A DNA stretch of 64,000 nt. Source: a virus. Shown here in pieces: positions 2,105 to 61,262 of this stretch. Position 1 is the first letter of the stretch; the number at the start of each line of letters is the position of its first letter. The notes beneath the pieces are model-generated. The model worked only from the letters and a program-made list of their open reading frames with translations, was not told where the DNA came from and ran no database searches. A program made the translations under genes and the position numbers. The DNA is taken from positions 12,725 to 76,724 of IMG/VR virus record IMGVR_UViG_3300044846_001307. The stretch is one strand, 5' to 3'.

Positions 2105-2115
2105 AAATTAAAGTT

Positions 2116-38433: not shown

Positions 38434-38478
38434 TAAATCTATTAAAATTTTTTAAGTTTACTAAACCTATAAAGTTTA
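38434..38478 (-). promoter_or_regulatory. putative late promoter/operator (17-bp palindrome + N20 + TAGATTTA)
   Basis: Minus strand TAAACTTTATAGGTTTA-N20-TAGATTTA-N14-ATG; same layout at 46242-46286. Confidence 0.5.
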
Positions 38479-41400
38479 TAGTAAAAATGGAAGCCATGAA
38501 CTAATGTCAATATAACCACTGTTTTCACGTACTGAACCACCTTTTTTTGTTGTTTGTTGTGATCCATAAACATTATTAATTATGTTTGGATCCGGTGCAG
38601 TATTAGTACCACCTCCACTTCCTCCAGTTCTAGCACAGTCTCTTAGTAGTGCTTCACTCATACCTGGATTGTTTGCTTTACATGCATCATATGCTTTTTG
38701 CCAACTACTAGTATTATTACTTCCTTGACCAGTAACTGTTTTATCAGTAGGTCTAAAATCCATACGTCCACCAGAAGGTGCATTAACAGCATAGTTAGGG
38801 TACATCTGGTTTAATGCATCTGTTTTCCATTTATTAGTAATACCCTGTGTATAATAGTTTCTAACATTATTTCTCATTGCTAATTTAGCATTGTCAAACT
38901 GTTGATTAGCAACTGTATTTTGATCATACAATCTTTGATTAGTTGCTTGATTCAACATACTACTTTGATTTCTAATATCATTTGCTTTTAATTCAAATTG
39001 ATTAGCAATATTGACATTGGCATTATTATACTTAGCTAGTATATCAGCAGCATTTTTAGCAGCAGCACCTTGAACACCTGATGATCTTAAACCTTGAGGA
39101 CCAGCAAACTGTGCTAAAGCATTTGTCTGAATAGCTGCTTGTTCAGCATTAGTACCAAGTTCTTTTGTAGGATCTTGAAACACAGGTCTAGGTACACCCA
39201 TTGATAATGGAGGAGCTGCCGGCATTCTTTTCTTAAGACCCATCAGATCTCCAAATGCACCTGTAGTTTTAATAGTATCTTGTAACCACATTCCAGGAGG
39301 TTCACCCGGTACAGGAATAGTTGTATCATCTGTACAAGGAGGACAATTACCATTTTGATCAGCAGTCATCTCTAATACAGTACCATCAGCTTTTTGACAT
39401 GGACATGTTTTAGGTTTTGCTGGTTCACATGTACAGTTGTTTTGAGCATCTTTTGGTTTATAATTTGGTTTATTTGGATCATCACATTGACATGGACCAC
39501 CTTCTGGTAGATCTTCAAATTCTAAATTTCTTTTACCAACCATATATTTATGACCAGCTGTTGTATCACCATATGTAGTATAAGTACCTCTTTTTGAACC
39601 ATACCAATTTTTATCATTATAATCATATGTATCATCAAGAGGAGAAATTTTATTACCTATTGGACCATATAATGCACCCATAGATGTTTCATCTGCTGCT
39701 CCTGAATGTACAAGACTAACATTACCTAAAAAATTATCCATTGCATATTTTGCATCAGGATCATTATTATAAGAACCACTTTCAAAATCTTTATATGCTT
39801 TTGCATAAGCATGCATAGTAGATTGTTGTAATAATCTATCTTTTCCTTTAGGTTCTAATGGTACATTAAGTTTATCTGACATTGCTGCTACAGTGGTATA
39901 ACCGGCATCAGTCATACGTTTTGTTTCAGCTTGAGCTTCAGATAATGTATAAGGTTTACCTGTTTTTGGATTTATATATTTTTCATCTAAAATTTCTTGA
40001 GGAGTATCCAGTCTATTACCTATATCAGAAAACAATTGCGGATCTACTTCATTAGCTTCAAACATTAAATTTCTTTTCTGATGCATTAAAGCTGCATTTA
40101 TAACTTCATCATCTGTTGGTAAATCTCCATATTTAACAGACCATTTTCTATTTGGATCTATAGATGTAGAAGTTTTACCTTTCCATGCTGCTGGATCATC
40201 AACAATTTGTTTTGTATTTTTTATAATCTCAGCTCTAACGGTTGGGTTATTAAGATTATCTTTAATTAACATGTATTGAGAAGCTGCCACTCTTCCTGTA
40301 GGTGTATCTGGAAAACCATCTAAGCCATCTGCTTTAATATCAGATCCACTAGGAATTGTAAAACCAGAACTTTTTAATTTTTGAGTCTTAACTTTTCCAT
40401 CTTCTCCTTTACGTGTTACTTGTATTTCAGCATTTTTATCTTTATCTTTTGCATTCCATATAGCTCTCTGAAGTTGATCTTCAGTCATATTAGTTGCATC
40501 AATAATTACAGGTCCACCTTGTGTAGTTGCTATACCATCTCTAGCTTTAACCATACGTGTTATTGGACCTGATGCAGGAATTCTTTTTGGTCTACCTTGA
40601 TAGTTTTGAGACATACCTGCACCCATTGACATACCATACTCTGCTTCTGGCATATCATAGAAAGGCATATCATAACCACCCATAGACATTCCATAGGCAG
40701 CCATTGGTGGTGCCATTTGTTCTTCTTCCATAGGAGGTTGTTGACCCATTGCTTGTTCTTGTCCACCTTGACCTTGGGACATTACTGATTGAATAAGACC
40801 CACAGCCTCTTCTTGAGAAACACCCAATTGAGTAAATACTTGTACTACAGCTTCAGGTGGAAGACCATTCTGTAATAAACTCATAACAACTTCAGCAGGT
40901 TCAGCACCTCTTTGTAAAGCACCTTGAACCTCTTGCATGATTTCCATCATCTGATCTTGACCACCTTGTGCACCTTGTGCACCTTGTTGTTCTATCATTG
41001 CCATTTCTTCAGGAGATGGTTGTTGCATACCTTCTGCAGCTCTTCTTAATCTTCTCATACCACCACCATACATCATCATTTCTTCTTGAGACATTTGTGG
41101 TTGTTGAGCTTGTGCAACAGGTTGACCTTGGTTCATTTCCTCAGCTTGCATCATTTGATTCTGATCATACTCTGATTCCATTGTCTGATCTGAATTCTCC
41201 TGTTGTTTCATTTGTTTTTTCAACTGATCATTTAATGCACTGATTTCTTTAGCAGGTAGAATTTGTTCTTCTGTAAGACCTCTTGCTTCCATACAAGGTT
41301 TAGCTACAGCAGGAATTCCTTGAGGAAAACCTTTCATTGATTCTTGAGCTAATGCTAAACAACCTAACTTAATGACATACTTCTTCATCATCAACTCAGC

Positions 41401-41877
41401 TGATTTTCTTTCTATAGCATCAGTATCAGGATCTTCTAAGATTTTTCTATACTTCTGTAAGTCATATTGTTTTGCAAGTTCTGCAGGAGTGTATGATTTG
41501 TTTATACCACCTTTACCAAACATAGCAAGTACAGCTGGATCTTTTATTCTCATACCTCTAGTATCACTAAAAATAAAAGTATCCTCAGGTAAATTTAATG
41601 GTACTCCACCATTATGGTGTCTTGGACCTTTAATGATTTGTTGTTCTGGCATTCCATCACCATTGATGTCTCCATATACAGTTTCTCCACCCTCTGCTTC
41701 TAAGTTAGCTTCATCTCTTGGTACGGCAGTAATATACTTACTAGCTATAAGTTTAGGCTTCCCTATATAAGCATTATAGTCTGCTCCACCCATTGCTGGA
41801 ACATCATTTACTAAAGCACCTTGGACTTGATATCCTGTTTTTGCTTGAGGTAATTTTTTAATTCTAACTTTTATCAT
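38476..41877 (-). CDS. putative virion cargo protein (EAEGGE/GPxHxxGG domain, Q/M-rich linkers, Cys module)
   Basis: 1133 aa; ANLEAEGGE...GPRHHNGGV...FIFSD; repeated xxGG and AxxG motifs; Q/N-rich coiled-coil C-terminus. Confidence 0.7.
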   Translation of the reverse strand: MIKVRIKKLPQAKTGYQVQGALVNDVPAMGGADYNAYIGKPKLIASKYITAVPRDEANLEAEGGETVYGDINGDGMPEQQIIKGPRHHNGGVPLNLPEDTFIFSDTRGMRIKDPAVLAMFGKGGINKSYTPAELAKQYDLQKYRKILEDPDTDAIERKSAELMMKKYVIKLGCLALAQESMKGFPQGIPAVAKPCMEARGLTEEQILPAKEISALNDQLKKQMKQQENSDQTMESEYDQNQMMQAEEMNQGQPVAQAQQPQMSQEEMMMYGGGMRRLRRAAEGMQQPSPEEMAMIEQQGAQGAQGGQDQMMEIMQEVQGALQRGAEPAEVVMSLLQNGLPPEAVVQVFTQLGVSQEEAVGLIQSVMSQGQGGQEQAMGQQPPMEEEQMAPPMAAYGMSMGGYDMPFYDMPEAEYGMSMGAGMSQNYQGRPKRIPASGPITRMVKARDGIATTQGGPVIIDATNMTEDQLQRAIWNAKDKDKNAEIQVTRKGEDGKVKTQKLKSSGFTIPSGSDIKADGLDGFPDTPTGRVAASQYMLIKDNLNNPTVRAEIIKNTKQIVDDPAAWKGKTSTSIDPNRKWSVKYGDLPTDDEVINAALMHQKRNLMFEANEVDPQLFSDIGNRLDTPQEILDEKYINPKTGKPYTLSEAQAETKRMTDAGYTTVAAMSDKLNVPLEPKGKDRLLQQSTMHAYAKAYKDFESGSYNNDPDAKYAMDNFLGNVSLVHSGAADETSMGALYGPIGNKISPLDDTYDYNDKNWYGSKRGTYTTYGDTTAGHKYMVGKRNLEFEDLPEGGPCQCDDPNKPNYKPKDAQNNCTCEPAKPKTCPCQKADGTVLEMTADQNGNCPPCTDDTTIPVPGEPPGMWLQDTIKTTGAFGDLMGLKKRMPAAPPLSMGVPRPVFQDPTKELGTNAEQAAIQTNALAQFAGPQGLRSSGVQGAAAKNAADILAKYNNANVNIANQFELKANDIRNQSSMLNQATNQRLYDQNTVANQQFDNAKLAMRNNVRNYYTQGITNKWKTDALNQMYPNYAVNAPSGGRMDFRPTDKTVTGQGSNNTSSWQKAYDACKANNPGMSEALLRDCARTGGSGGGTNTAPDPNIINNVYGSQQTTKKGGSVRENSGYIDISSWLPFLL

Positions 41878-41885
41878 CGGGTTCT

Positions 41886-44800
41886 TTATAAATATTCAAC
41901 TTGTCCTCCTGCTGCTAAGAATTGTTCTAATTCTTCTGGAGTCATATATACTTCTTCATCATCCATGTAACCACCATCTTGCATGTAACCACCATATTGA
42001 GCAGCATTACTGTTTGCATAATTACCAAAGGTTGCTCTACTGTTTCTGTCTGATCCCATTTCATCGTATCTAAACATACCAGTTTTACTACCTATATCTC
42101 CCCAATCTCCCTTATCAGTTTGATTAGATGCCATTACATTAGCCATTGGATCAAACTTGTCTAACAACATATTGTTTTCAATTGGATTGTTTTGCATTCT
42201 TTCCATAAAACCTAGACCTGCATTAGCCATTGAATTAAATGCATTAACTCCTGCTTCACCATCAAAGTTTCTAGCTGTTTTACGTTGTCTTTCTACACCA
42301 ACATACTGATTTGGATTAGGTTGAGGTGCTGGCTCTTGAGGTATAATTTCTTGACCTTGGTTACCTAATGTATGACCAGTATTTGCAGTTTCAGCATAAG
42401 AACCTGTCCCAGTCTGAGTTATAAAGTTGAATGGGTTTTGTTGTTGTGGCATTTTGTTAGGAGCTTGTGCACCAAACAGATCATTTTCAAATTGAGATTG
42501 TTGAGAATAAGGATTATATCCTGCTTGATTTTGACCAGCTCCCATACCAAAACCAGTACCTACTTCAAATGCACCACCCATTCTTTTAAAAGAAGGATTT
42601 TTTATTCTATCAACTAATGTTTTAAGAGTACCATATGCATTCTTTACATTATCAACTGCATCTCTAGCACCATAATAAACTTGATCAGTATTGTATCTAG
42701 CACCACGTCCTTGTTCATATCTCTCAGCTTGTCTTAGATTTCTTTGACCTCTTCTAGTTTGCTCATCCCACTCTTCATCACTAAATTGGAATCTTTCTTT
42801 TGCTTGATCTTCTAAACGATCTCTTCTACTTGTCTTTTCAGGCTTGTCATTGTTTTTGTAATTAACCATTGACCAACCATCTTGAAGTGCATCTTTTACC
42901 ATTTTTTTATCAAGACGACCAAGATTAGACTTGTTTCCAGAACCTCTACGGTTATCTAACATACCCTCAAGGTTTTGTAAATCACCCATAGGAACTCCAG
43001 TACCATCACCATCTACTTGATAGATGTCAATCCATTTTTTTCTACCACCTAATAAACCTTTCTTAGTAGTGTAACTTGCAACAGGTTTGTCTGGTATAAG
43101 ACCATTATAAGATCTACCATCATTTAAATAATATGGAGAACCTTTTTGTTTAACCCATGATCCTGCAGCACCAAACACTGGATTCCACGGAACTAAGTTA
43201 CGACCATAACCACCTGGATTTCTAACCTGTGTATACTTATAGTTCATTTTAGCTATTGGAATACACATGTTGTATTTGTCATTCCAAACTGTACCAGGAC
43301 CACACTGAGTTTTCTTTGATTGCAAGCTTGCACTTGAATTTGATACACAAGCAGATCCATTCCAAGTATATCCTGCTGGACACTTCTGAGTACTTCCTTC
43401 TTCTTCTTGTTCTTCACCACCTATATTAGTATAATCTTTCAATGCTTCATCATAAAAATTTTGATAATCATCATATGTCCTATCATCTAATTTAACATCA
43501 ACATCATAGTCCCCATCTGGATTAGCAGCTTCCCAATCTTCTCTTTCACTTTTTCTATTTAATATTTCATTATCTGCCCATTCTTGATAATTCATTTTAT
43601 CTTGCATACCTCTTAGCTCTCCAGCTTTGTTAGTAATAGTAATACCATCTCTAGCTTGTTCTAAATCATATGGTTCATAGTATTCACTCTCATCACCACC
43701 ATAAATAAATTTAACAAGTGGTTCTTCAGCATTCATATCTACAAATCCACCAAATGCTGCAGTAAAATCTGTATTCATTGGTTCTTCTTCAGCAAGATTT
43801 TCTTTATAACCATCTTGCGTTAACATGTTTAGAATCTTTGGATTACCCTGAGCATTCTTATAAATATCTTTTGATATAGCTTTATTAGAATTAGTTTTTA
43901 ATGTACTAATGAAAGAGTTTTTCATGTTAGCAACATCATCTGTCAAAGTATCTTTTCTATTACCTTTACCTAATGCTTCAGTATCACCACCTTCTGCATA
44001 CATTGAAACCATTTTTTTAATAAATCTGTTTTCAGAAACACCACCTTTTGCAAAATCATCAGGTAATACTTGGTTTTGTAAATTTGGGTTTACAACATTT
44101 GAATCTTGGTATCTATAATAGTTATAGTCACTAGGAGTTTGTCCTTTTAAGAATTTTAAACTATCTGGTGTCCGTAATGAATTCGGATCAATAGTACCAT
44201 CTTCTCTAATAGGAGTAGGGTCTAAAACTCTACTTGGCCCTACATCAGTACCACATGTACATTTACCAAGAGCATTTTTAGGTTGGAAGTTTGGTAAATT
44301 ACGATCCTCACATTGACACGGATGTGCTAATGCATCATATGTTTGATAACCTAGATAACCTAAACCACCACCAATAAGTGTAGTCTTTAAACCTAATCTA
44401 TACTTATAGTTAATAGCATTCTTAATATCAGATGCTGTTTGTGAATAAGGTATAGCAGCAGGGTCTTGAATGTTTGGTCCAAGAGCCATGTTTGCATAAC
44501 CATATACAGGTTGATCAATATTTTCAATTCCTTTTGCACCAGTTCTGAATAATTGGTTTAATCCAGTTGTTCCATATGTTTCTAAACCTCTACCAATTTT
44601 TCCTCTGTTACTTAAAGTATCCCATGTAGATGGTGGTAGACCTGTTATATCAACTTTGTTTACACCTTTAAAATCATCCATGTAATTAGGAAAAGGAGTT
44701 GTTCCAAAATCTTTTAATAACAACTCATTCATGCTACCTGTAAATGAAGAACCAATTGGTCTTGTAACTCTTGATTTTGTTTGAACACCCATTGTTAATG

Positions 44801-46226
44801 GATTACCTAATGGATCAAATACATTTAATCCACCTGTCTCAGGGTCTTGATTGTAATAAAATCTATTTTTAAATGTAACTTCTTTAGCTTTAGGAGGTGT
44901 TGTACCAAAAGGTAAATTTTGGTTAGGACCAAAAGTATGTTTAAACTCAAAAAATTTATTACCAGCATCATCTTCACCACCAATAACTTTTGTTTGAGGA
45001 GGGTAAATACCACTAATCAAACCTTCTTGTTGAGACATGTTACCGTAAAGGTCTTCTAATGTAAAAGGTTCATTATTGGTTCTTTCTAATTGCATTATTA
45101 AATCTTGAACATCTGCTTGATCTAATACTAACCTATCAGCTTGTAAGCTACCATCAGTTCCACCAGCATATGTCCCATTCTGACTAAACACTCCTGTTTT
45201 TGGAGTAGCTCCATTAATAACATTCCAAAGCTCAGTTCTATTCTGTGTAAATGGAGTAGCTAATTTTGGAGCAAACTTTGCTCCTACATAAGGTAACCTA
45301 GTCATTGCATCACCAATACCTGTAAATACAGGTAATGCTTTACGTACTGTAGATAAATTAGATAAAGGATTTGCTTTGTTAGCATATCCAATAGTTGGAA
45401 CATACTCAGCTAATTTTTGAAGTGCATTTTTAACAGGAGGTGTATTTAATCCATATTGTGCTCTTGGTAAATAATCTTGAGGTTGGTAAGAATCAGATGC
45501 ACTTCTGTAATCACCTAAGTAATAAGATAGATCTGGAGTTGCTGGCATCTGTTGTGCACCTGGTGTCATAGCAATTAAATCTTCCATAGAGAAAGGTTTT
45601 CCTTCAGGTGTTTTCCCCGGTGTACCATACTGATTTATTACAGTTTGTTCTCTACTTGGTTGTTGGTTAGGGTTCATATCTTCAAATTCAGGATACTCTC
45701 CACCATCATCAAAGTAACCACCATATTTAAAAGCTTGTTCTTCTTCATCCTGTGTCATTTCTAAAGCAGAATTCTGATTCATTTGTGCATCTTCCTCATC
45801 ATATAAACCACCATCAGAAATTGCTAGTTCTTCTTGCTCTGCATCTGAAGCTGCTCTTTCATTATCTTCATCTGTTTGTTGCTGTGGATTAGCTGGTTCT
45901 TCTGTTTGAGTTTTATCTTCAACTAATTCTGGATCAACATAACCTTCTTCTGCAAGTTTACTCATAGCAGATTTAATAAGCATTATAGATGTATTCTCAT
46001 CTAATGCATACTCATTAATAAGTTGATTAAATAACATATCAGGTGTAGCATCATTTTTTAATGATATATAAACCTGATCATATATTTGATTTAGTTTAGC
46101 CGGATCCATACTTGGAGTTCCTACTTCCATACCCATAGCTGCTTTTTCTAAAAACTTAGCAGTTTTGTTATAGTACCCTGGAGTTTCACCTGGAAGTGCT
46201 TTTCTAATCCTTACTTGCTTCTTCAT
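41886..46226 (-). CDS. putative virion cargo polyprotein
   Basis: 1446 aa modular low-complexity protein; many xxGG motifs; small Cys modules. Confidence 0.7.
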   Translation of the reverse strand: MKKQVRIRKALPGETPGYYNKTAKFLEKAAMGMEVGTPSMDPAKLNQIYDQVYISLKNDATPDMLFNQLINEYALDENTSIMLIKSAMSKLAEEGYVDPELVEDKTQTEEPANPQQQTDEDNERAASDAEQEELAISDGGLYDEEDAQMNQNSALEMTQDEEEQAFKYGGYFDDGGEYPEFEDMNPNQQPSREQTVINQYGTPGKTPEGKPFSMEDLIAMTPGAQQMPATPDLSYYLGDYRSASDSYQPQDYLPRAQYGLNTPPVKNALQKLAEYVPTIGYANKANPLSNLSTVRKALPVFTGIGDAMTRLPYVGAKFAPKLATPFTQNRTELWNVINGATPKTGVFSQNGTYAGGTDGSLQADRLVLDQADVQDLIMQLERTNNEPFTLEDLYGNMSQQEGLISGIYPPQTKVIGGEDDAGNKFFEFKHTFGPNQNLPFGTTPPKAKEVTFKNRFYYNQDPETGGLNVFDPLGNPLTMGVQTKSRVTRPIGSSFTGSMNELLLKDFGTTPFPNYMDDFKGVNKVDITGLPPSTWDTLSNRGKIGRGLETYGTTGLNQLFRTGAKGIENIDQPVYGYANMALGPNIQDPAAIPYSQTASDIKNAINYKYRLGLKTTLIGGGLGYLGYQTYDALAHPCQCEDRNLPNFQPKNALGKCTCGTDVGPSRVLDPTPIREDGTIDPNSLRTPDSLKFLKGQTPSDYNYYRYQDSNVVNPNLQNQVLPDDFAKGGVSENRFIKKMVSMYAEGGDTEALGKGNRKDTLTDDVANMKNSFISTLKTNSNKAISKDIYKNAQGNPKILNMLTQDGYKENLAEEEPMNTDFTAAFGGFVDMNAEEPLVKFIYGGDESEYYEPYDLEQARDGITITNKAGELRGMQDKMNYQEWADNEILNRKSEREDWEAANPDGDYDVDVKLDDRTYDDYQNFYDEALKDYTNIGGEEQEEEGSTQKCPAGYTWNGSACVSNSSASLQSKKTQCGPGTVWNDKYNMCIPIAKMNYKYTQVRNPGGYGRNLVPWNPVFGAAGSWVKQKGSPYYLNDGRSYNGLIPDKPVASYTTKKGLLGGRKKWIDIYQVDGDGTGVPMGDLQNLEGMLDNRRGSGNKSNLGRLDKKMVKDALQDGWSMVNYKNNDKPEKTSRRDRLEDQAKERFQFSDEEWDEQTRRGQRNLRQAERYEQGRGARYNTDQVYYGARDAVDNVKNAYGTLKTLVDRIKNPSFKRMGGAFEVGTGFGMGAGQNQAGYNPYSQQSQFENDLFGAQAPNKMPQQQNPFNFITQTGTGSYAETANTGHTLGNQGQEIIPQEPAPQPNPNQYVGVERQRKTARNFDGEAGVNAFNSMANAGLGFMERMQNNPIENNMLLDKFDPMANVMASNQTDKGDWGDIGSKTGMFRYDEMGSDRNSRATFGNYANSNAAQYGGYMQDGGYMDDEEVYMTPEELEQFLAAGGQVEYL

Positions 46227-46241
46227 AACATGTTATATATA

Positions 46242-46286
46242 TAAATATACTAAATTTTAATTTAATCAATACACTTTAAAAGTTTA
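46242..46286 (-). promoter_or_regulatory. putative late promoter/operator (17-bp palindrome + N20 + TATATTTA)
   Basis: Minus strand TAAACTTTTAAAGTGTA-N20-TATATTTA-N15-ATG. Confidence 0.5.
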
Positions 46287-49200
46287 CTCATCCTCAATGA
46301 TATAACCATCTTTAATATACTGATCTATTTCTTTTTTAGATAACTTGGCTACCATACCACCTTTTTTATTTTTTGGTTTTACCCACGGGTTAGTTAATAA
46401 CTCTTCAGCTTTACTATAAACTTTTTTAACAGGCTCTGTAACATATTCATCAAGATATTCTTGAGGTGCAGCCATACCCATACCAGCAAGAGCTGCAGCA
46501 TAAGCAGCACCATAACCATATCGTTCTATTAAACTTTGTAAATTTCCTCCTTGAGTTCTCCAATCAAACTCATCATTTCTAAGTTTATCCATGTTAACAG
46601 GAATGTATCTATTAGAAAAAGGTAATCTTCTATGGAATGAAAGACCTGGTTCAGATAAAGGAATACTAGGCTTTCTATTACCAAGAGCATCTGTAACTAA
46701 AACACCATTTCTATTAGACATTTTTTGAAAACTTATATCAGAACCAGGAACATTTCTATTAAATTGAGCACCAAATACTCCTGAATATTGTTCATTAGGT
46801 TCATTAAGTTCAGCCCAATTACCTTCAGACATAATTTGATTTTTACCCATTCTTAATAATGGACCAGCTGAAGGATTTAATTCTCCAGACATTTTTACAT
46901 AATCTAATGTATCACCAAATTTTCTAAATGCTGTACCATCCATAGGATTCATTTTTTCTCCATAGAAAGGAAGAGCATTTAAAGGACTTCCTGTAAATGG
47001 ACCCATTTTTTCAATGCTTGTACCAAACAAAGGTATCCTTACTGGATTTATCATTATAGGTGCTATATTTTTAGCTAATGAATTTACAGTACCTATAGTA
47101 CCTATGTTAGCCATTCTTGCTGCAGTTTTACCTGATGCACCTAAAGATTGTAATCCTTTAACAATTGCACCAGTTCTAGCTTTAATTAAACCACCATCTG
47201 AATAACCTAACAAATTTGTATTCATTGGTTGTTGAGGTACTCTCCATCCAGGATTAACTTTATTAATATTAAACTCACCAAAACCTAAACCTTTACTTAA
47301 TGTATTAATAGGTTTTGTGATAGATTGAAATTTTGGTTGACCTATACCAGGAATAGCAGTACTTGGATTACCCATAAATATTCCAGATCCAGGTGTTGCA
47401 GCATTATATGTAAATGCATATCTACTTTCCGGACTAAGATTTGCTATCATAGTTCCCGGAGTTTTTAAAGTATTAAGTGTCTTAAAAGCATTTTTAGCAA
47501 CTCCTACAGCAGGTAGTGCACCTAAAGCATCTAATGCAGCTGTACCATAGTTTCCTTTCTCAAAGTTATCATATGCACTTTCAGCAAAAGCTGGTGCATT
47601 TGCATAGTAACTAAGTTGACTAATTGGATTATTAAATACATTAGACATAAGTGGTTTTATCAAATTGGGCTTATACCATTTAGCACCTTTTGTAATTGCA
47701 TTTAATCCTTTGATACCACCATATGTGGATCCAACATCCCATAATTCTTTCCCTACAGCAGGAAGAAACTCTCCTTTATCATAACCTTCTCTTAGATTGA
47801 AACCAATCTTAAATGGATTAAAAGGTTGTAAAAGAAAGTTAAAAGGACTCATTACACTTACAGGCATTGTACCTAAATCCTCTCCTGTCTCATCTTCAAT
47901 CTGTTTTCTTTGAGAATAGGTTAAATTTTTAGGTCCATCCCACATACCTTCTCTCGCATTCATTGCATAGTACATACAATCAAAAGGATGTTTTAAACAA
48001 TCTTTTACTTTAGCTCCAGTATTTTCATCAATATTAAATTGATTTCCTGAAACTTGTTTTATTGTGTCAGGATTTTTTTCATATAAAAGTCTAGCCTCTA
48101 TACTGTTATTTAATATATCGGCATATGTTTCTTTTTTATCACCAGTTTTTTGTTCTAATAATTTTTGCATTGCTTGACTAGGATCCTCTTGAAATGATTT
48201 TAATATTTCAAGTTTACTTTTTTGTGTAGAACCTGCATTATCTAATGCTTGTTTAAGAACTTGTTTAGTAGCATCTGATTGAAAATTTTGCATGTATGCT
48301 AAATAAGCATCATTAAAATCTTTAGCTTTAGCAGTATTTGCAGCAGCTAGTGCATTCTTTTGATTTAAAGTTTGGTTCAATAATGCATTGTTCTGTCTAA
48401 CATTAGCCATAGCATCATCTTTTGCAAAAGTAAGTCCATCATACTGACCTGCTTTTCCATACTTATCCATCCAATCTGAATAAGCTTTCTCACCTCTTTC
48501 AGTTTTTTGAGATTGATAATTAATAAAATCTCCTAAGTTATTTGTACCACTATGATATCTCTTTTCCCATGCAGTCATTGGGTCATCAGATTCTAAAAAT
48601 ATTTTACGATCCTGATCAACCTTAGCTCTATCAGTTCCGGGTATAGAATCTATATTTGAAACAAGACTTGCATATGCATCATCTATTATTTTATTTGTAG
48701 GTTTTTCAAATGTAGATTTTAAACCTGACTGTGTCCCTATTTTAGGAGAAAGTCCTTTAATAACTTGGTCTACAGGTTTACCTTGCTCAATGGCTTTTGT
48801 AAGTATACTCTTAGTTACTTCAGCTTCATAGTTAGCTTTAGCTGCTCCCATTAAATCTCCAAGTTGTTCTTTAACTTGTTTAGGATCTAAACCCCAATAG
48901 TTTTTAAATTGCTCTGCTTGAAAACCATTTGTAATAATTCTATCTTGAACTATGTTTTTAGGAAACAATTCTATATAACCATCTTTCTTATGAACAAGAA
49001 AATTATTTTTTAACTCAGCTTCTTCTTCCGGTGAAACATTAGATTCTGGAATTTTTTTCCAAGGTTCAATTTTATCTTGTTTTTTAGATTTAGCAAATGT
49101 CTCACGATATTTATCACTCTCTTCTTTATACCATCTTTTTTGTTGTTCATTTGCTTTAGTACGTATATCATTTATGTCTTTAGCTAAAGCTGTATTTCTA

Positions 49201-49544
49201 GCTAATTGTTTAGCTTCAAAGTCTTTTTGTATTTGATTCATTTCTGCTTTAGAAGCAGCAATATATTCTGATTCAGGTAAACATTGTCCATTAAACTCAT
49301 ACATACCTGGAGGACATCCTTCACCTCTCATATAACCTGGCAATGATTCATTCCAATATGATGGTTGCTGTACTCCTTGTACTTCTACCATAGGAGAAGC
49401 TGGTGTTTCCCCATCATATGGATCTTGTGATTTATTTGAAGATTTAAATTTACTTTTTTTAAGTCTACTATTTTTAATTGTTTTACCAAATCTGGCTTGA
49501 GGTAATTCCTGTGGAATACTAGTTATTCTGTACTTTGCCATCAC
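46284..49544 (-). CDS. putative virion cargo polyprotein
   Basis: 1086 aa; LPQARFG, SDGG, LIKARTG and KKGG motifs; shared C-terminal tag. Confidence 0.7.
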   Translation of the reverse strand: MMAKYRITSIPQELPQARFGKTIKNSRLKKSKFKSSNKSQDPYDGETPASPMVEVQGVQQPSYWNESLPGYMRGEGCPPGMYEFNGQCLPESEYIAASKAEMNQIQKDFEAKQLARNTALAKDINDIRTKANEQQKRWYKEESDKYRETFAKSKKQDKIEPWKKIPESNVSPEEEAELKNNFLVHKKDGYIELFPKNIVQDRIITNGFQAEQFKNYWGLDPKQVKEQLGDLMGAAKANYEAEVTKSILTKAIEQGKPVDQVIKGLSPKIGTQSGLKSTFEKPTNKIIDDAYASLVSNIDSIPGTDRAKVDQDRKIFLESDDPMTAWEKRYHSGTNNLGDFINYQSQKTERGEKAYSDWMDKYGKAGQYDGLTFAKDDAMANVRQNNALLNQTLNQKNALAAANTAKAKDFNDAYLAYMQNFQSDATKQVLKQALDNAGSTQKSKLEILKSFQEDPSQAMQKLLEQKTGDKKETYADILNNSIEARLLYEKNPDTIKQVSGNQFNIDENTGAKVKDCLKHPFDCMYYAMNAREGMWDGPKNLTYSQRKQIEDETGEDLGTMPVSVMSPFNFLLQPFNPFKIGFNLREGYDKGEFLPAVGKELWDVGSTYGGIKGLNAITKGAKWYKPNLIKPLMSNVFNNPISQLSYYANAPAFAESAYDNFEKGNYGTAALDALGALPAVGVAKNAFKTLNTLKTPGTMIANLSPESRYAFTYNAATPGSGIFMGNPSTAIPGIGQPKFQSITKPINTLSKGLGFGEFNINKVNPGWRVPQQPMNTNLLGYSDGGLIKARTGAIVKGLQSLGASGKTAARMANIGTIGTVNSLAKNIAPIMINPVRIPLFGTSIEKMGPFTGSPLNALPFYGEKMNPMDGTAFRKFGDTLDYVKMSGELNPSAGPLLRMGKNQIMSEGNWAELNEPNEQYSGVFGAQFNRNVPGSDISFQKMSNRNGVLVTDALGNRKPSIPLSEPGLSFHRRLPFSNRYIPVNMDKLRNDEFDWRTQGGNLQSLIERYGYGAAYAAALAGMGMAAPQEYLDEYVTEPVKKVYSKAEELLTNPWVKPKNKKGGMVAKLSKKEIDQYIKDGYIIEDE

Positions 49545-52500
49545 TATATTTTTTCAAACGTATAACCTAATTTCTTTAATTGTTGCATAGTAGCTTCATC
49601 TATTTCATCTCCAAGTTCATAATCAATAGAACCTCCTTGTTGAGCATATTGCATTTCTTCTTGAGAATCATTTTTTGCAATATAGTTAAATAGATCTTTT
49701 AATCCTTTCTCATCTTTTACAACTTTGAAAAGATTGTATAATGCAGGATCATAATTAGGATTATTTTTATCCAATGCACCATTTTTCTCTGCTTCAGATT
49801 TCCAAGACTTAATATCCTCATCTGTAATAACTTGTGTTGGTTGAAGACCTTTACTTTGTCTTACCTCAAATATTAAAGACTGTATGTTGTCTTGACTAGG
49901 ATCTGTAAGATAATCATAATAATCCCTAGCTGCTTTTTTATCTGCACCTTTAAGATCACCCCAACCTTCTTCAAATGATTTTAAGTTAGGTTGAATAATA
50001 ATTTGTTCAGCAGGTAATATTTTATCACCAAATTTATCCCAAAGTCTTGTTCTTTCTTCATGTGCAATAGTTGAATTTAATTCTTTTGGATCAGCTTTCA
50101 ACTTTTCATTTAGTAATATTTTTTCAGCATCACCCTCATCATCATACACTAACTCTCCCATTACATTTGGATCATCATTAATTATACTAGCATACTCATA
50201 AGGCACAGATTGATTTAATTCATCCAATAGTGGAGATTGCGGATTATAAACTGGTAAGAATTGTTTTAATGTACGTTCATATGTCTTATTACCTATTTCA
50301 TCAAAAGGTAATTGTCTATTCCCATACCAGTTACTAAAGTAAGAGTTTGCATCTATTAAATTACTTGAAGGATCATTTTCTTCAATAGGTGTATCCATTT
50401 GAACAGGAGCTGGGCCACCATTTCTTTTTTGGTTTAAAGCACCTCCATATTTTCTTTCAGCATCTATTAATTTCTGTTTATTACCAGTTGTTAAATACTC
50501 TTCAAATGATTTTACTAATTTTTTTTCAACGTCACTTTGTTGTTCTTGATTTTTTGAAGCAGCATTTAAGTAAGACATTATCAAAGCATCATCAAGATCT
50601 TTATATAACTCCTGTTGTTTTATTTTCTTTACATCACTCTCATCAAAAACTGTTATTTCTCTTGGATCAAAAGCACCAGTAAAACCTTTATCTCTTAATG
50701 CATCTGCAGCTTGAGCTTGACTTGTTCTAATTAAATCTTCATTACCAGTTGGATTAAAACTTGTTCTTAAAGCCTGTTCATACTCATATCCATTTTGAAA
50801 ATTTCTTGGATCTACACCATTTATCAAGCCTACTTTTTTTATAAAGTCATTAGTCATTGGTGCATTATAATTTAAAAAGTTTTGAGGATTTTTAAATAAA
50901 GCTTCTGAAACATAAGGTGTAAATGTTTTAGATTGAGGTATTAAACCATAACCACCTAAACTACTACTTCTAGCTGCACTTGCAGCAAAGTCAGGATGTT
51001 GTGTAAAATATGCACCACCTTCTTGATTACCTAAACCACTACCTCTAAAAGATCTATCAAAATTTTCAAATGATGTTTTATGTCCAGTTAAACCACCTGT
51101 TATTATTGGTTGATCACCATCATACATAATTGGATTGTAACCACTATACTGAGTTAAAAAATCACTCTCTAGCATAGGAACTTTTTCCAATAATTTTTTT
51201 GTTTGCTGTAAGTCTAACTTTGGCAATTCAAACTGAGCACCTGGAATAGCAGCTGGAAGATTAATCTGACTAGATAAACCTTTTAAATAATTATCTGCTA
51301 CATAATTTAAAGCAGGTAAATTTTTACTTACAGCACCTAAACCTCTAAGTGATTTTATCAAATTAGAACTAACTACCAGACCTAATTTAGGAGGAACTAC
51401 TTTAGCAACACCACCTAAGTTATATTTTCTAGTAAGTTTATAATTTGGAATTCTTATTTCACCTGTATTGCTTCCTGGAATAAGTTGTAAATAAGCTTTT
51501 TCTGTTAAACCCCTACCTTGTAAATCTGCATTCAATCTACCAATCATCTCATCAGCAGCCTTTGGATCCCATTGTCTTAATGAACGTAACCCTTTTGGTA
51601 CATTATCTAAACCTTCAAATAGTTTACTATGTGTTGCCGCAAAATTTAAAGGAATATAATTTTCAAAATTCATATCCCAATCTTTTTTATTTGCCATGTT
51701 TAGTAATAGATTATATGAATCTAAACTTAAACTATGTGGTTCTAATATAGAAGGAAACGGTTGTGGAAATGCATCATTAGCTATTTTAAATGCTTTTCCT
51801 GCTTCTAAAGGACTAGTCATTTTAGTACTAAAATGAAAAACATTATCCTCTACTTTATTATTAGGATGAACAGAAAGATAACCAGTATCACCGCTTATAC
51901 TTAAAGGGTAATTTATTTGAAGTGCTTTAAGATCAGCGGGTATATTTTTTAAATCTATTTGAGTAGGATTTATTTTAGGTAATATAGTAGTAGTTCCACG
52001 AGGAAATACAGTACTGCTTACACCAGCAGGTCCTATTATAGTACCAGTATATCTTCTAACAGGTGGTGCTTTAGTTACAGTTTTAACTACTTTACCTAAG
52101 TTAGCTTTAGTTAACTCAGGTACAGAAATGTCTTCTATAATAAAACCACCCTTAGCATACTCTTGTATTTCTTTAGGAGTAAGTTCTGCTTCTATAAATG
52201 CTGGTGACACATCTTTATAATGTTCTGCAAAGTATCTTGCATCATTTGGATTATCAAACTGCATTGCTTCTTTAGAAGAATGATCATAATCTCCAAAATT
52301 TAATTGACCATTTTCCTCTTGTATTTGTGGAACAGCATAGTTATCCATACTGGCCATATAATGTGTTCCATAATTACCATCACCAAAATCATATGGTTGG
52401 TCTGGTACAACAATCATTCTTTGTGCAGCGGGATTACCAAATTCATTTGCATATGCAAGTTTGGATTTCATAACTGCATTTGTATAGTCTTGTAAATGCT

Positions 52501-53329
52501 CAGGAAGAGGAATATCATATTCTCCTTCTTCATTATGTGAATCATTTACTGCTTGACCTTCAGCAGTAGTTTCTCTCCAATTTCTATAATCATTAAGTTT
52601 ATCCTGTAACAAATAATAATCTTCTAATGTCCAGCTATCTGGATTTCCTATTTGACTTTCTATGTCTCTAATTTCTTGACCCCATTCTTCTGGAGTTGTA
52701 GCTCCTCCTTTTCTATAGTACTTAGCATTAGGATCATACACTTTATTCTTTCTAGACTTAGGTTTAGCAAAGAATGAATTTTGTGTAAAGAACTTATTTG
52801 TAGCCTCTAGACTTCTTGAGTATCCTTTAGAGTTTTTCTTTCTAGGCATCTTTGGTAAAGAACCACCTTTTTTAAAATCATCTGGAGTTTCTAAAGTGGG
52901 GTCGTTATCTTCGTAATAGTTACCTGCTATTTCTTCTCCCGGTTGAATGTTCTTAAGGGCTCTTAAATATCTTTTGTTACCTTGAATTATAGAACCAGCA
53001 TTGAATGCATCATCAGAATGATTGTAATGTGCTCCTACAACAGGAGTCTCTTTACTTTTCAAATATGTTTCACCATTCTTTTGGAAAGATGATTTAATAT
53101 GTGAAAGACCAATTATCTCACCAGCTCTGATTGGTTCATCAGCAAACAAACCTTTACCTTGTATGTTAGATTTTTGTATACTAACTTTTTTGTTAGGTTT
53201 TTCATTTAAACCACCGTTACTCATCAAAGGGTTTCCACTTGGATCTACCAATATATCTCGTCTTTTAACAGGTGCTTTAGCACTACCAAGATTTTTGAGT
53301 GAATCAATAAGAACTTTTTTATTATACAT
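49544..53329 (-). CDS. polyvalent cargo protein: SET domain, ADP-ribosyltransferase-like domain, degenerate zincin
   Basis: 1261 aa; SET motifs SNIQGKGLFA..I..GE.I, YNHS and ALKNIQPGEEIAGNY at ~52910-53190; ART-like segment at ~50620-51100. Confidence 0.75.
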   Translation of the reverse strand: MYNKKVLIDSLKNLGSAKAPVKRRDILVDPSGNPLMSNGGLNEKPNKKVSIQKSNIQGKGLFADEPIRAGEIIGLSHIKSSFQKNGETYLKSKETPVVGAHYNHSDDAFNAGSIIQGNKRYLRALKNIQPGEEIAGNYYEDNDPTLETPDDFKKGGSLPKMPRKKNSKGYSRSLEATNKFFTQNSFFAKPKSRKNKVYDPNAKYYRKGGATTPEEWGQEIRDIESQIGNPDSWTLEDYYLLQDKLNDYRNWRETTAEGQAVNDSHNEEGEYDIPLPEHLQDYTNAVMKSKLAYANEFGNPAAQRMIVVPDQPYDFGDGNYGTHYMASMDNYAVPQIQEENGQLNFGDYDHSSKEAMQFDNPNDARYFAEHYKDVSPAFIEAELTPKEIQEYAKGGFIIEDISVPELTKANLGKVVKTVTKAPPVRRYTGTIIGPAGVSSTVFPRGTTTILPKINPTQIDLKNIPADLKALQINYPLSISGDTGYLSVHPNNKVEDNVFHFSTKMTSPLEAGKAFKIANDAFPQPFPSILEPHSLSLDSYNLLLNMANKKDWDMNFENYIPLNFAATHSKLFEGLDNVPKGLRSLRQWDPKAADEMIGRLNADLQGRGLTEKAYLQLIPGSNTGEIRIPNYKLTRKYNLGGVAKVVPPKLGLVVSSNLIKSLRGLGAVSKNLPALNYVADNYLKGLSSQINLPAAIPGAQFELPKLDLQQTKKLLEKVPMLESDFLTQYSGYNPIMYDGDQPIITGGLTGHKTSFENFDRSFRGSGLGNQEGGAYFTQHPDFAASAARSSSLGGYGLIPQSKTFTPYVSEALFKNPQNFLNYNAPMTNDFIKKVGLINGVDPRNFQNGYEYEQALRTSFNPTGNEDLIRTSQAQAADALRDKGFTGAFDPREITVFDESDVKKIKQQELYKDLDDALIMSYLNAASKNQEQQSDVEKKLVKSFEEYLTTGNKQKLIDAERKYGGALNQKRNGGPAPVQMDTPIEENDPSSNLIDANSYFSNWYGNRQLPFDEIGNKTYERTLKQFLPVYNPQSPLLDELNQSVPYEYASIINDDPNVMGELVYDDEGDAEKILLNEKLKADPKELNSTIAHEERTRLWDKFGDKILPAEQIIIQPNLKSFEEGWGDLKGADKKAARDYYDYLTDPSQDNIQSLIFEVRQSKGLQPTQVITDEDIKSWKSEAEKNGALDKNNPNYDPALYNLFKVVKDEKGLKDLFNYIAKNDSQEEMQYAQQGGSIDYELGDEIDEATMQQLKKLGYTFEKI

Positions 53330-56300
53330 TATCTAGGAGAAAATTGATTTTTACTATTAGACATTTTGAAAATCACATTGACATCGTCACCTTGATTTTT
53401 TCTAAGGTTTATAAAATTCAAATAATTTCTAAACTTCTTTCTTTGCATTTGAGGTTTAGCATAATCCATATTATTTGGATTCAAGATTCTAGTGAAACCA
53501 TCTGGTGCAGTTATCCATGTATTCTCTGAAGAATAAGATCCTTGAAGAACAGTAGTGCCTGGCACTACAGGTCCTGTTGGTGGATAGTTTGATCCATTAG
53601 GGAACTCAGCTCTTTGTTTTGTAATATCCCAGAACTGATTAAATCTATACTTGTTCTCTTCTTTAGAGTAAAGGATATCATATGAGTTAAGATTTGCATT
53701 TAGTTTTGGATAGTCTAATGATTGATTAACATTATTTTTAGGATAGATGTTAAGGTTTAGGTATCCAGAAACTTGTTCAGCATTGTATACTACAGCTCTA
53801 TCAAAATTATAATCTAACACATTATGTTGATCAACACAACTATCACCACGTCTTCTATATGCTTCTAAGATATACTCAATAGATCTAGTTGTCATTACAG
53901 ATTGTCCTGTTATAACTGGAAACTCAATCTCATATCCGTACTGTACACCATAGTAATTAGTGTAACCATCACAAATATAATTGTGTTTCCATAGAGTATT
54001 CTTCTTACTACTGATAAAGATATCTTTTGTAGGAATAAGTAAATCCGGATGCCAATCATGGAATGATATAAAGAACTGATTCTTAGGGTCATAGCTTAAT
54101 GTCCATGATGCATCATCAAACAAATAAGGATCTCCTAGATTAAATCTAGAATTTTGTTGACCATCTAATATAAAGTCATCACCCGTTCCATCTGGATTTA
54201 AGTCTCTATATTCAACTCTACCTTTAAATTGAGGTTTTAATTGATAATCTTTTTTACTAAAATACAAGATAGTACTTGAGCTATCATATGTAGATTGACA
54301 ACCAATACCAGCAACTGGATTATCTTGCCATGGGTAATTTGGAAAATCATCTGTTAACTTGTATGGCATATATAATATTAACCACCATTTCAAACCAGCT
54401 TGAGAAATTTCCTGCAGACCTTGACCATAAGAAAAAATTCTTCCCTGGTTTTGAGACATATAATACAACCCTACAGGAGTATTAATTACTGATAATCTAT
54501 TTTGAGAAGAACCAAATTCATATGCATTATCTGCATTAGTTACAGACTGCTGTGGTTGACTAAATAAAAGTCCGTCACCAATAGTAAGCTTGGTACCTAA
54601 ATCAGTTTCTAATGTATCAGTACCTTGGAACATCAATGGACTTTCATTTTTAAATGTAATGAAAATACCACTTTTGTTTACTGCCTTAACACCTGAAATC
54701 TGACCTGTAAATTCTTTGTAGTTATTTACTAAGTATATAAACCAACTATCTTTAATTGCCTCCATTTGTTGAGGCAATGAATAAATAATTCTATCTGGAT
54801 AATAAGTATAACATAACTTAGCTACACTAGGATCATAGTATCTACTTTGTACACTACCTGCAGAAAAATATTGATTATAAAGTTTTGATACACTTAATGA
54901 GTAATCATAAATATACTCACTCAGCATTCCCATAACATTAGGATTCATATTAAACATTGCCTGATAGTCCGTATATCTATATGGATCATAATGTTTACCT
55001 CCTTCTATTGGACTTTGTTTTCTAAAGTCAACAATAACTTCAGACTCTACAAAGAAATCTCTAATACCTGAATTAGCTAAATAAAAGTATGCTTCTTTTA
55101 CAGACCATAATCCTACATATCTATCACCTAATAAGCCACTTGGTAATGATACATCAGTTGCATAGTTATAACGTCTATTACTATTTACAAAATAATCAAG
55201 ATTGTAAAAAGAACCTGGATATGCACCAGTACCTGGTGTAGATGGTGAAGAGAAGTTAAATACTTCTGATAAATAACCAACATCATATCTGATACTATTT
55301 ACTTTAAATCTTGTTAAAGGAATCATACTATGCAGATAGTAGTTATACTCAAAACCATCTGGTTGACCATATAACCAATCATAGAAAAACATCATATTAT
55401 TTTTCTCAGTGTACCTGTTTATATAAGTATCACCACCAAATAATATAGGTGTTCTACTAATAACTTTAAAGTTATAGAAAACGTTATCAATAGGACATGT
55501 CCAACTTGGTTGAGCTATGGTATAATTTTTTAACTTCTGTTCACATGGTGTAATTGTAATTTGACTTTCACTACCTATCTGTCCATATTGATTTCTTACT
55601 CTTCCTTTTAATCCACCATAATGACTAGCAATAGTTAAACTAAAAGGTTTTGTTTTTGAATCCTCCTCAAAATTAGGAAGGTTTGTACTTATAAAAGCAG
55701 GGTTACTACTATTTTGAACTATTGTTCCTAATGTAACTAATGACTTATCTGTTACACCTGATGTAATTAAATTTGGACCAATAGTCACACCATTTGGATA
55801 CACGCCATTATAATAAGGACCTGATTTAGTTCTTACTACAACGGCATCAGATCTCTTTAAGTTATTTATATTATAACTAATAAATGTACCTGTATTAGTT
55901 TGATACTTAGGAACTTCTTGTACATTATCTCTAATATAAAAACTATCTTCTATTCTAAATCTACTTAATGCTGTAGTAGGTAAACTTGCCATGTTACCAT
56001 AAAAACCATGACTTACTTGTTGCAATGCATATTGTTCGTATTGAACAAAAGCATAAAATGTTCTCAATACTAATTCAGCACCCTCTGCAAAATAAAATGA
56101 TATAGCATTTAATGCACCTAAAATTCTTGAAGCAGGATCTAAATAAGCAAACTTAGGTAATTCAAGATTACCAGAAACAGCCATTGGTGATACACCAGCA
56201 TTATCAGCTGCACCATTGACTGTTGACACAAAAAGACTTTCATTATTAGCAGCAGCAGTATTATCATAACCAGCAGCTATACCTATAAATACATCTGCCA

Positions 56301-61220: not shown

Positions 61221-61262
61221 ATGCCGTTGTTGTCACAGAAACCAACAAACTGTAACTTCTTT

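Follow-up and report, generated by a model that had tools for sequence, protein, structure and literature searches.

A conserved ~45-residue element brackets exchangeable modules in the predicted cargo proteins of an uncultured crassvirus

Background

Crassviruses rank with the most abundant phages of the gut and are also common in the sea. How their cargo protein, several megadaltons in all, is selected, stacked and ejected is a question raised here by four consecutive genes (A–D) of an uncultured phage, read from the genes alone, in a 64,000-nt window (positions 12,725–76,724 of IMG/VR record IMGVR_UViG_3300044846_001307) that is part of a 76.7-kb viral contig with a G+C content of 31–37%. 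An earlier note on this DNA had described two short motifs, of a GG type and an AxxG type, recurring in the four proteins and had read them as maturation-protease sites or packaging signals between interchangeable effector modules. Judged from their sequences, the two motif classes are the upstream and downstream flanks of one conserved element of ~45 residues, found at module borders and gene ends. We propose, at a probability of about 0.45, that this element is a handle by which cargo is loaded and ordered and that it doubles as a recombination seam; we infer that it is not cut.

Identification of the junction element

The four genes were taken from a list of open reading frames (ORFs) and, for A, its translation. 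They are A (49544..53329, 1261 aa, the first gene past the muzzle gene), B (46284..49544, 1086 aa), C (41886..46226, 1446 aa) and D (38476..41877, 1133 aa, which by gene position occupies the slot of cargo protein C1 of phage PhicrAss001). Coordinates are those of the window, and all features lie on the minus strand unless stated otherwise. All 20 GG-type and 10 AxxG-type peptides listed in the earlier note were present in these ORFs, and the positions it gave for MSNGG and FKKGG were correct to ~3 nt (placed here at 53213–53227 and 52862–52876, respectively).

Expected motif counts and P values were obtained from 2000 composition-preserving shuffles per protein. In A–D, 50 GG pairs were seen against 37.5 expected (P = 0.02), 16 [FYM]xxGG against 4.2 (P < 0.0005), 13 [LM]xxAxxG against 3.5 (P = 0.0005), and six cases of [FYM]xxGG followed within 25 aa by [LMIV]xxAxxG against 0.13 (P < 0.0005). 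The motifs were thus commoner than composition predicts, strongly so for the two specific forms and mildly for plain GG; since no more than 16 GG pairs out of 50 had the [FYM]xxGG form, the signal is strong for the specific motif and weak for plain GG. No pattern was enriched in five neighbouring large proteins (E, F, G, H and the muzzle protein; 10,662 aa), so that the enrichment was confined to A–D. The same residue choice was seen in 80 related loci, drawn from IMG/VR with a profile of the D family (>2000 homologues): at the GG sites of their cargo ORFs, M/F/Y stood three residues before the first G in 38% and Q/K/A/R two residues before it, and no such preference was found before GG in control ORFs of these loci.

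The motif pairs inside the proteins (A 394–412, B 784–792, C 843–861, D 271–283 and D 400–415) resembled the gene ends. The upstream part of the element corresponds to the C-termini of A, B and C, and the downstream part to the basic N-termini of B, C and D. From 49 independent internal copies a consensus was read as [FY]Q[DE]GG, 1–6 residues, [YF][IV]E[LA], [DE]LTx[DE]EIxxYxKGG, Y[IV]VE[DE][IL] and SVPELxxAQKG(G). In structural terms GG leads into a short strand, which is followed by the acidic helix ELTxEEIxxYxKGG, then by a second strand, YIVE[DE]I, and last by SVPELxxAQxG(G); helix and strand periodicity extends across ~30 residues. The one internal element of A is at residues 366–412 (52094..52234; ...FIEA-ELTPKEIQEYAKGG-FIIEDI-SVPELTKANLG; 28 bits with the CT-handle hidden Markov model, HMM), which is kept in the nearest relative, L001, while its flanks diverge.

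An HMM of the helix-strand core gave 160 matches in 225,000 residues of cargo ORFs of the 80 loci and none in 125,000 residues of their other ORFs; 106 of the matches were natural C-termini and 54 were internal. A first HMM of the N-terminal tag was too specific for the D type (2 internal copies only) and was replaced by direct reading of the sequence after internal elements. S[IV]PxL followed the core in 124 of 189 internal copies and an [AMKQ]xxG-type flank lay within 22 aa after it in 180 of them; the remaining follow-ons were PxAQxG or x[YF]Q[DN]GG. AQxG(G) and [YF]QxGG stand in for each other after the core and are therefore probably one motif (a bulky residue or Ala, then Gln/Lys/Arg, any residue, Gly, Gly).

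A 53-position profile, built from 42 internal copies and run against 1.84 billion representative proteins, matched 951 protein clusters at E ≤ 1e-3 (523 at E ≤ 1e-10 and 35 at E ≤ 1e-30). Among 142 proteins analysed of the 150 profile matches listed, each carried 2–4 copies at a median spacing of 523 aa, and 121 of 324 copies were C-terminal.

The element at gene ends

At the C-termini of A, B and C, GG precedes a short strand, after which come a helix (..E-I/L-x-x-Y/F..) and G-[G/Y]-x-hydrophobic-E. B, C and D start with a basic strand and then LPxAxxG. The C-terminal tag of A (49547..49648; YAQQGG-SIDYEL-GDEIDEATMQQLKKLG-YTFEKI) is of a type that was terminal in 66/66 occurrences. The N-terminal tag of B (49485..49544; MAKYRITSIPQELPQARFG) aligns with the downstream half of an internal junction (ISVPELxxAQxG); therefore, the border between genes A and B is a split inside the element. 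B ends in NKKGG-MVAK-LSKKEIDQYIKDG-YIIEDE (46287..46370; CT-handle HMM, 29 bits), and C starts with MKKQVRIRKA..NKTAKFLEKAAMG (46131..46226), a tag kept in ~50 loci. The C-terminal tag of C (41889..42002; AQYGGYMQDGG..YMTPEELEQFLAAGG-QVEYL; CT-handle HMM, 34 bits) was terminal in 54/54 occurrences and had a mean pairwise identity of 59%, against 41% just upstream. D starts with MIKVRIKKLPQAKTGYQVQG (41818..41877), near-invariant among 120 homologues and with a mean identity of 72% in 41 loci, and ends in TKKGG..GYIDISSWLPFLL (38479..38553), terminal in 103/103 occurrences. Because three tag types were terminal wherever they occurred, tags at free ends work without any cut.

Across the 80 loci, the first gene starts with MYNKKxLSKAxxELxKAKAP (as MYNKKVL..AKAP, the N-terminal handle of A, it is kept in 19 or more loci), genes end in ..KKGG-x4-LTxxEIxxYxxxGYIVEE or ..YGGYMQEGG..MTEEELxxFLANGGEVEYL, and D-type genes start with MxKVRIKKxPQARTGYQVQG and end in ..GGFVYxDxxYPFIL. 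The bodies between these terminal peptides range from 363 to 2241 residues. The tags are better conserved than the adjoining sequence, and the terminal peptides are nearly unchanged among phages with only 35–40% identity in D, the query of the locus search. Natural gene ends fall within the element after YIVEE, ~25 residues past GG and 10–15 residues ahead of AxxG, and fused and split gene forms interchange at the element.

In locus L028 a GIY-YIG-like ORF of 213 aa (L028:12958-13599) starts with the first six residues of E-type proteins (MATYLQ) directly before the real E gene, and looks like a homing-endonuclease insertion at a gene start.

Such paired ends might bind each other. In that case A-B-C-D would form a non-covalent chain, arranged as the genes are ordered and the proteins ejected, in which each acidic C-terminal strand pairs with the basic strand (KVRIKK) that starts the protein encoded next, and the internal copies of the element would be relics of gene fusion. 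The charges are complementary (..YIIEDE, ..QVEYL and ..YTFEKI vs MxKVRIKK and MAKYRIT), each type of C-tag has a constant type of N-tag after it in diverse loci, and the single fused form of D that was found lacks the KVRIKK strand. However, the constant pairing may merely mirror conserved gene order, the internal copies are strongly conserved, unlike relics, and nothing shows contact between tags. Complex prediction for the last 50 residues of C with the first 130 of D scored 0.10 against a mark of 0.32, which counts neither way. We consider this docking code distinctly unlikely.

A possible covalent version is found downstream, in the giant proteins F (27840–35231, 2463 aa), G (17891–27838, 3315 aa) and H (11953–17889, 1978 aa). 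Their 7,756 aa contain only four cysteines, namely the last residue of F, residues 3 and 3314 of G and residue 3 of H. The ends are the same where visible (F ..NSNLC, G ..PFKCS, H MVC) in relative G002 (114.9 kb, 96%-complete), and C3 of H is unchanged across 30 homologues. F, G and H may accordingly be chained by disulfides in gene order, and the confinement of the cysteines to adjoining ends points independently to head-to-tail ordering of cargo by gene order.

Exchange of modules at the element

The claim that A–D are chains of exchangeable modules was borne out by alignments with L001, with D homologues and by breakpoints: relatives gain, lose and swap modules at the motifs. The four proteins of L001 are 52–85% identical to A–D over aligned columns, and the alignments break exactly at the motifs. 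B (52% identity) has another C-terminal module in its entirety, from YSDGG-LIKARTG to KKGG; the insert that follows FKKGG in A is a different one; and D and C diverge past MVKARDG and LEQARDG, respectively.

Breakpoints were defined as BLAST alignment ends internal to both partners, and as near a motif when ≤15 residues from it. Their share near a motif, compared with random positions, was 61% vs 19% in A, 36% vs 5% in B, 34% vs 17% in C and 46% vs 14% in D; counts across loci are not phylogenetically independent, and these figures are uncorrected for shared ancestry. The seam YSDGG-LIKARTG of B (residues 781–792; 47169..47204), at which the L001 swap starts, falls in the 780–799 bins that hold 20 of the 58 B breakpoints. 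The module behind it (residues 793–1058; 46371..47168) also occurs inside a D-type protein of phage P0010; modules therefore move between paralogous cargo proteins. In C, a seam at FIYGG..LEQARDG (residues 840–861; 43644..43709) was located by the L001 alignment and by breakpoints. In D, the conserved seam MMMYGGGMRRLRRAAEG (residues 267–283; 41029..41079) supplies end points of deletions and duplications in homologues, and the seams AAYGMSMGGYDMPFYDMPEAEYG and MVKARDG (residues 393–448; 40534..40701) are insertion points of foreign modules in P0007, P0010 and P0012. The insertions, one deletion and tandem duplications found in D homologues are bounded by the MMYGG/LRRAAEG and MSMGG/MPEAEYG seams.

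Two small units were seen at such seams. A helical unit of D (..LLQNGLPPEAVVQVF..EEAVGLIQ.., residues ~285–375; 40750–41030), bracketed by seams, occurs three times in tandem in P0109, and P0028, P0034 and P0035 have it duplicated. A four-cysteine module (..LLTKKVTCKKCGWKWDAADGGDDVTTCHKCGG..) follows the junction element in L001 (~6900–7050), L033, L056, L078 and L079, where it replaces residues ~157–275 of A of the window.

Clustering of breakpoints at the seams would also be expected if these were passive, Gly-rich hinges with a small autonomous helix-strand unit that aid unfolding, threading and refolding, have no role in binding or cutting, and are kept as convenient recombination joints. 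The seams are modelled at low confidence and are probably flexible, and cargo is thought to pass the tail partly unfolded (PMC10172136). Against this, conservation among phages with 35–40% D identity is far above the needs of a hinge, the element persists at free C-termini, which have no use for a hinge, and insertion of modules into H works without the element. A purely passive role is very unlikely in our view.

Modules of the four proteins

The model of A[1-1200] from AlphaFold2 (AF2) had a mean predicted local distance difference test (pLDDT) of 50 and was used only for block borders and the SET domain. Its confident blocks were 43–148, 209–262, 454–632 and 993–1200. In line with the earlier note, the motifs lay at domain borders, in low-confidence stretches edging blocks 43–148 (SET), 454–632 and 993–1200; MSNGG, FKKGG, YRKGG, YNLGG, RKYGG and KRNGG were at the edges of confident blocks and none was buried.

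The SET methyltransferase module (residues 43–148, 52886..53203; pLDDT 65–87), between MSNGG and FKKGG, proved to be real: it matched Pfam SET with 25.5 bits (E = 1.8e-5; cut-off 22.4), and Foldseek matched it to 4rz0, 3kma (vSET), SET7 and SET8 at E of 5e-6 to 1e-4. A second module proposed in the note, resembling ADP-ribosyltransferases of the ART-PolyVal family (residues ~749–906; 50612..51085), is possible; its Pfam match (E = 0.04, 15 bits; atlas lead 0.88) is below the cut-off, and homologue P0196 has a clear ART-PolyVal domain between two junction elements. A zincin-like module of A (residues 972–1232) was rejected because it has neither HExxH nor a family match.

Homologues of A (n = 120) cover 10–78% of the query and carry SET, Amidase_2, ART-PolyVal, VanY, Pkinase or phage lysozyme domains. 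In six mapped homologues, each Pfam domain lay between elements (J), e.g. SET-J-J-lysozyme+PG_binding...J, SET-J-VanY-J and J-ART-PolyVal-J. Two or more unrelated effector domains are thus found per polypeptide: SET and the weak ART-like region in A, SET with lysozyme and PG_binding or SET with VanY in homologues.

Is the chain cut?

The same borders would suit maturation-protease sites, as the earlier note had proposed. Cuts after [FYM]xxGG and AxxG, in the particle or after injection, would excise the ~45-residue element as a spacer or propeptide and free the modules, and the tags might target the protein first and be trimmed later, as with the capsid-targeting sequence of T4. T4 gp21 and phiKZ gp175 process head-internal proteins. 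Several observations agree with cutting. The element has a small-residue motif to either side, in regions of low pLDDT that are flexible and border domains, and it is here that genes alternate between fused and split forms. Modules acting in the periplasm and in the cytoplasm share one chain in relatives, and small basic structural-block proteins of a relative (see below) are also rich in [MF]xxGG. Autoproteolytic zincin metallopeptidases (MPTases) have been proposed for polyvalent proteins, and DdrB of P1 is processed before packaging (PMC5512222), which provides a precedent.

Two genes of the window might encode a processing enzyme. Giant protein H contains a candidate zincin-like peptidase region (residues 138–307, 16969..17478; AF2 pLDDT 74) with a conserved HExxH (HEFSH, 17260–17274), in which H206 and H210 are invariant and E207 near-invariant among 30 homologues, and with conserved glutamates downstream. 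VIA-align of this region found anthrax lethal factor and Certhrax at Z~5, among many helical chance matches; for the N-terminus of H, phmmer against the PDB was empty, Pfam gave noise only and Foldseek gave nothing at E ≤ 0.001, so a zincin fold of H is not established. It is the only co-encoded candidate in the virion block and keeps processing possible. The second candidate, a putative metallopeptidase of 437 aa with a VWA-like domain (791..2104, plus strand; Pfam DUF2201_N and DUF2201, E = 9e-15 and 1.3e-17), adjoins a MoxR-like AAA ATPase of 389 aa in the replication block (791–3285, plus strand). In G002 an extra ORF of 246 aa lies between the counterparts of these two genes.

A canonical protease was looked for in several places. 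No head protease was found among the 10 head-module proteins of the 96%-complete G002 (PHROGs and Pfam; terminase, portal and capsid proteins were identified). The sole gene there between those for the portal and capsid proteins (418 aa) has no family match, and its product is, by eye, acidic, helix-rich and scaffold-like. Peptidase_S78 had no match in five relatives, a search that left other protease families unscanned genome-wide. No cysteine protease turned up among the proteins scanned, which were part of the genome and were not searched specifically for Peptidase_C5, C63 or C48. A scan for HExxH found no zincin-like MPTase domain in A–D themselves, and nothing was found in the literature on processing of crassvirus virion proteins.

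The motifs themselves also fit a protease imperfectly. Adenain, whose rule is (M/I/L)-x-G-G-x with cleavage after the second Gly, and pS273R of African swine fever virus both cut at Gly-Gly-X. As there, a bulky residue precedes Gly-Gly here, and the proteins compared are inside the virion (by prediction in the case of A–D). The adenain rule does not fit, however, because the bulky residue (M/F/Y) is at P5, with Q/K/A/R at P4, where adenain has the bulky residue at P4. The short recurrent motifs are at domain edges and breakpoints, yet are embedded in a much longer conserved element; a unit ten times longer than a protease site is more than such a site needs. Natural gene ends fall at neither GG nor AxxG, as described above. 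H homologues take module insertions without these motifs, which a packaged processing enzyme therefore does not in general require. Virions of PhicrAss001 gave bands at 150, 270 and >300 kDa (PMC6235969), and its giant cargo is therefore not chopped, although the band holding gp45 could not be read. On this evidence maturation-protease sites, the first half of the earlier proposal, are somewhat unlikely, and its packaging-signal alternative, likewise a hypothesis, fits better. Of the earlier interpretation as a whole, the cargo position, the exchangeable modules and the SET domain stood, the ART-like module remained weak, the zincin-like module of A was not supported, and proteolytic maturation stays a hypothesis.

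Loading and cutting might also be combined in two steps. Acidic helix-strand tags and basic N-terminal tags would dock the module strings to the tail barrel, the portal or the next cargo protein, stacking them by gene order; then a putative co-packaged zincin, the HExxH domain of H, would cut the [FYM]xxGG and AxxG flanks, inside the particle or on entry, freeing wall hydrolases for the periplasm and SET, ART or kinase effectors for the cytoplasm. We regard such an address-and-trim system as quite improbable; if true, crassviruses would have a general and portable principle by which any module could be loaded into their particles.

Genome context of the locus

The minus-strand block is ordered as tail ring protein, muzzle protein, A, B, C, D, E and giants F, G and H on the ORF map. 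Tail ring protein 1 (58872..59909) matched Pfam CrAss_Ring_1 (E = 1.2e-8) and the muzzle protein (53329..58869) matched crAss_MUZ (E = 4.6e-28); protein E is encoded at 35237–38419. The position of A–D between the muzzle gene and the genes of giant virion proteins, on one strand, is kept in the 80 loci and in PhicrAss001. G002 shares this block and also has terminase, portal and a Crass_capsid major capsid protein (E = 8e-30). The ring and muzzle matches and the gene order shared with PhicrAss001 show that the phage is a crassvirus and place A–D in the cargo position. By this position, A–D are probably virion cargo proteins, packed into the particle and injected. From the ring and muzzle genes upstream and the giants downstream, they are best described as what appear to be polyvalent cargo proteins. 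A Pfam scan gave no match on D or E, and PHROGs gave no useful matches on A–E or on F–H.

H has further features. Its homologues have an insertion hot spot near residue 110 (H ~100–116; 17540–17590), between ..RPDQPMMMR and ..SLQEINGVLFMD, which takes up an AAA_33 kinase, GNAT, ART-PolyVal or unknown inserts of 130–1100 aa (P0248, P0251, P0257, P0270, P0307 and P0316); in those homologues the insertions had no GG/AxxG tag and no match to the helix-strand HMM. A LysM domain is at residues 1654–1692 of H. A search of F–H for DxDGD found no RNA-polymerase motif, and an RNA-polymerase label of the giants is therefore positional only.

In a relative, small, very basic proteins are encoded in the structural block (L086:1251-1916, i.e. 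G002 61251-61916, and G002 59717-60895). One protein of this cluster (221 aa) contains MKKGG, MAKGG, FKKGG, MQSGG, FKNGG and KKMGG, so that the GG half of the tag is common to probable internal or DNA-associated proteins. A ferritin/Dps-like protein (L086:2621-3238, G002 62621-63238; Pfam Ferritin, E = 1.8e-25) with an N-terminal extension of ~50 aa is also encoded among the virion genes.

Discussion

Proteins of this kind, i.e. crassvirus cargo and polyvalent injected proteins, are known already. To this the present analysis adds the 45-residue consensus with its helix-strand core. It also unites the two motif classes, shows that some tag types are strictly terminal, counts 951 clusters, documents a module that moved between paralogous cargo proteins and sets these findings against the tag-free insertions in H. 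The bracketing element was not found described in the literature searched on crassvirus virion proteins and polyvalent proteins.

The closest structural counterpart is PhicrAss001 (Bayfield et al. 2023, PMC10172136), in which the genes directly after the muzzle gene and before those of the giant virion proteins encode cargo proteins C1 (gp45) and C2 (gp46); these and the giant RNA-polymerase-associated proteins were all found in virions by mass spectrometry. There, gp45 is stretched N-to-C from tail to capsid: short helical segments of it are bound, in 12 copies, inside the tail barrel, with the chain running N-terminus first towards the tail tip, while a folded domain sits on the portal and another short, unassigned helix is seen at the muzzle (PMC10172136). 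This arrangement fits the reading of the element as an uncut handle. gp45 also contains AYGG, AFGG and AEGG peptides and a stretch, FAYGGD..MSVEELEALMVQSGE, that is by eye only like the C-type tag. PhicrAss001 differs in having two cargo genes, where four or five with enzyme modules are found here; the tag is not described in PMC10172136, and the text of that paper nowhere refers to cleavage, a protease or a scaffold.

Polyvalent proteins (Iyer et al. 2017, PMC5512222) resemble A–D in that each strings unrelated effector domains, such as ART-PolyVal, kinases, peptidases and wall hydrolases, into a long polypeptide that is predicted to accompany the DNA into the host, and in that their architectures vary greatly among relatives; A–D are encoded beside virion genes. 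A–D differ in having no MPTase of their own, a domain that many polyvalent proteins have but that membership of the class does not demand, and in that each module is bracketed by the ~45-residue element, which also forms the gene ends. The text of PMC5512222 has no mention of crAss phages or linkers.

Two other systems have comparable parts. In polymorphic toxins, pre-toxin motifs (VENN in CdiA, PT-TG) form a conserved border past which modules swap by recombination. Such motifs mark a single border, ahead of the one toxin domain at the C-terminus of a secreted bacterial protein, whereas the element is present in 2–4 copies per chain, at both ends of modules, in phage proteins. The capsid-targeting sequence of T4 and the cargo-loading peptides of encapsulins are short terminal peptides on unrelated cargo that are enough for loading into a shell. 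In T4 the peptide stands at the N-terminus and gp21 cuts it away after (L/I)xE, and encapsulin peptides bind the shell interior. The tag described here, for which a handle role is proposed from its distribution, differs in being internal as well.

In the mechanism that we favour, the element would stay within the mature protein. It would serve as a short peptide to which either some fixed structure in the particle (tail barrel, portal or muzzle) or a neighbouring cargo protein binds, so that strings of modules would be packed in gene order and threaded out N-terminus first. The placement of the cysteines of F, G and H at adjoining ends also agrees with such ordering. Each module being bracketed by one common element, the element would also be the seam where recombination swaps modules.

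Several points speak against this mechanism. SET needs S-adenosylmethionine and the cytoplasm, and wall hydrolases the periplasm; that relatives carry both on a single chain is more readily understood if cutting takes place. The small-residue flanks (GG and AxxG) on both sides of the element have the look of spacer-peptide excision, and H carries its invariant HExxH. In the AF2 model, the internal junction of A is a short helix (385–392) at pLDDT 25–43; it is not self-folding in this model, an appearance that would be expected of a partner-dependent peptide and is not proof of one. The cargo status of A–D is read from gene position alone: D and E were dropped as demonstrable homologues of C1 and C2 after comparison of the D family with gp45 by hhalign (probability 0.3%), of E with gp46 by BLASTP (E = 0.16) and of the D N-terminal profile with all PDB chains (no match). 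A tblastn search of A and of D against 50,697 phage records gave no match and thus no cultured relative. The shared ancestry of the loci counted above weighs in the same direction.

Conclusions

One conserved tag, which brackets swappable modules and is found in roughly a thousand protein clusters, offers a tangible way into the question of how crassviruses choose, stack and eject their cargo. It predicts which peptide to seek in the unassigned cryo-EM densities of the tail barrel and muzzle, which residues to mutate and where mass spectrometry should seek neo-termini. It also delimits the repertoire of injected effectors (SET, ART, kinase and wall hydrolases) and aids the annotation of thousands of giant hypothetical proteins. 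If the tag suffices for loading, new effectors would be recruited to crassvirus particles by simple recombination.

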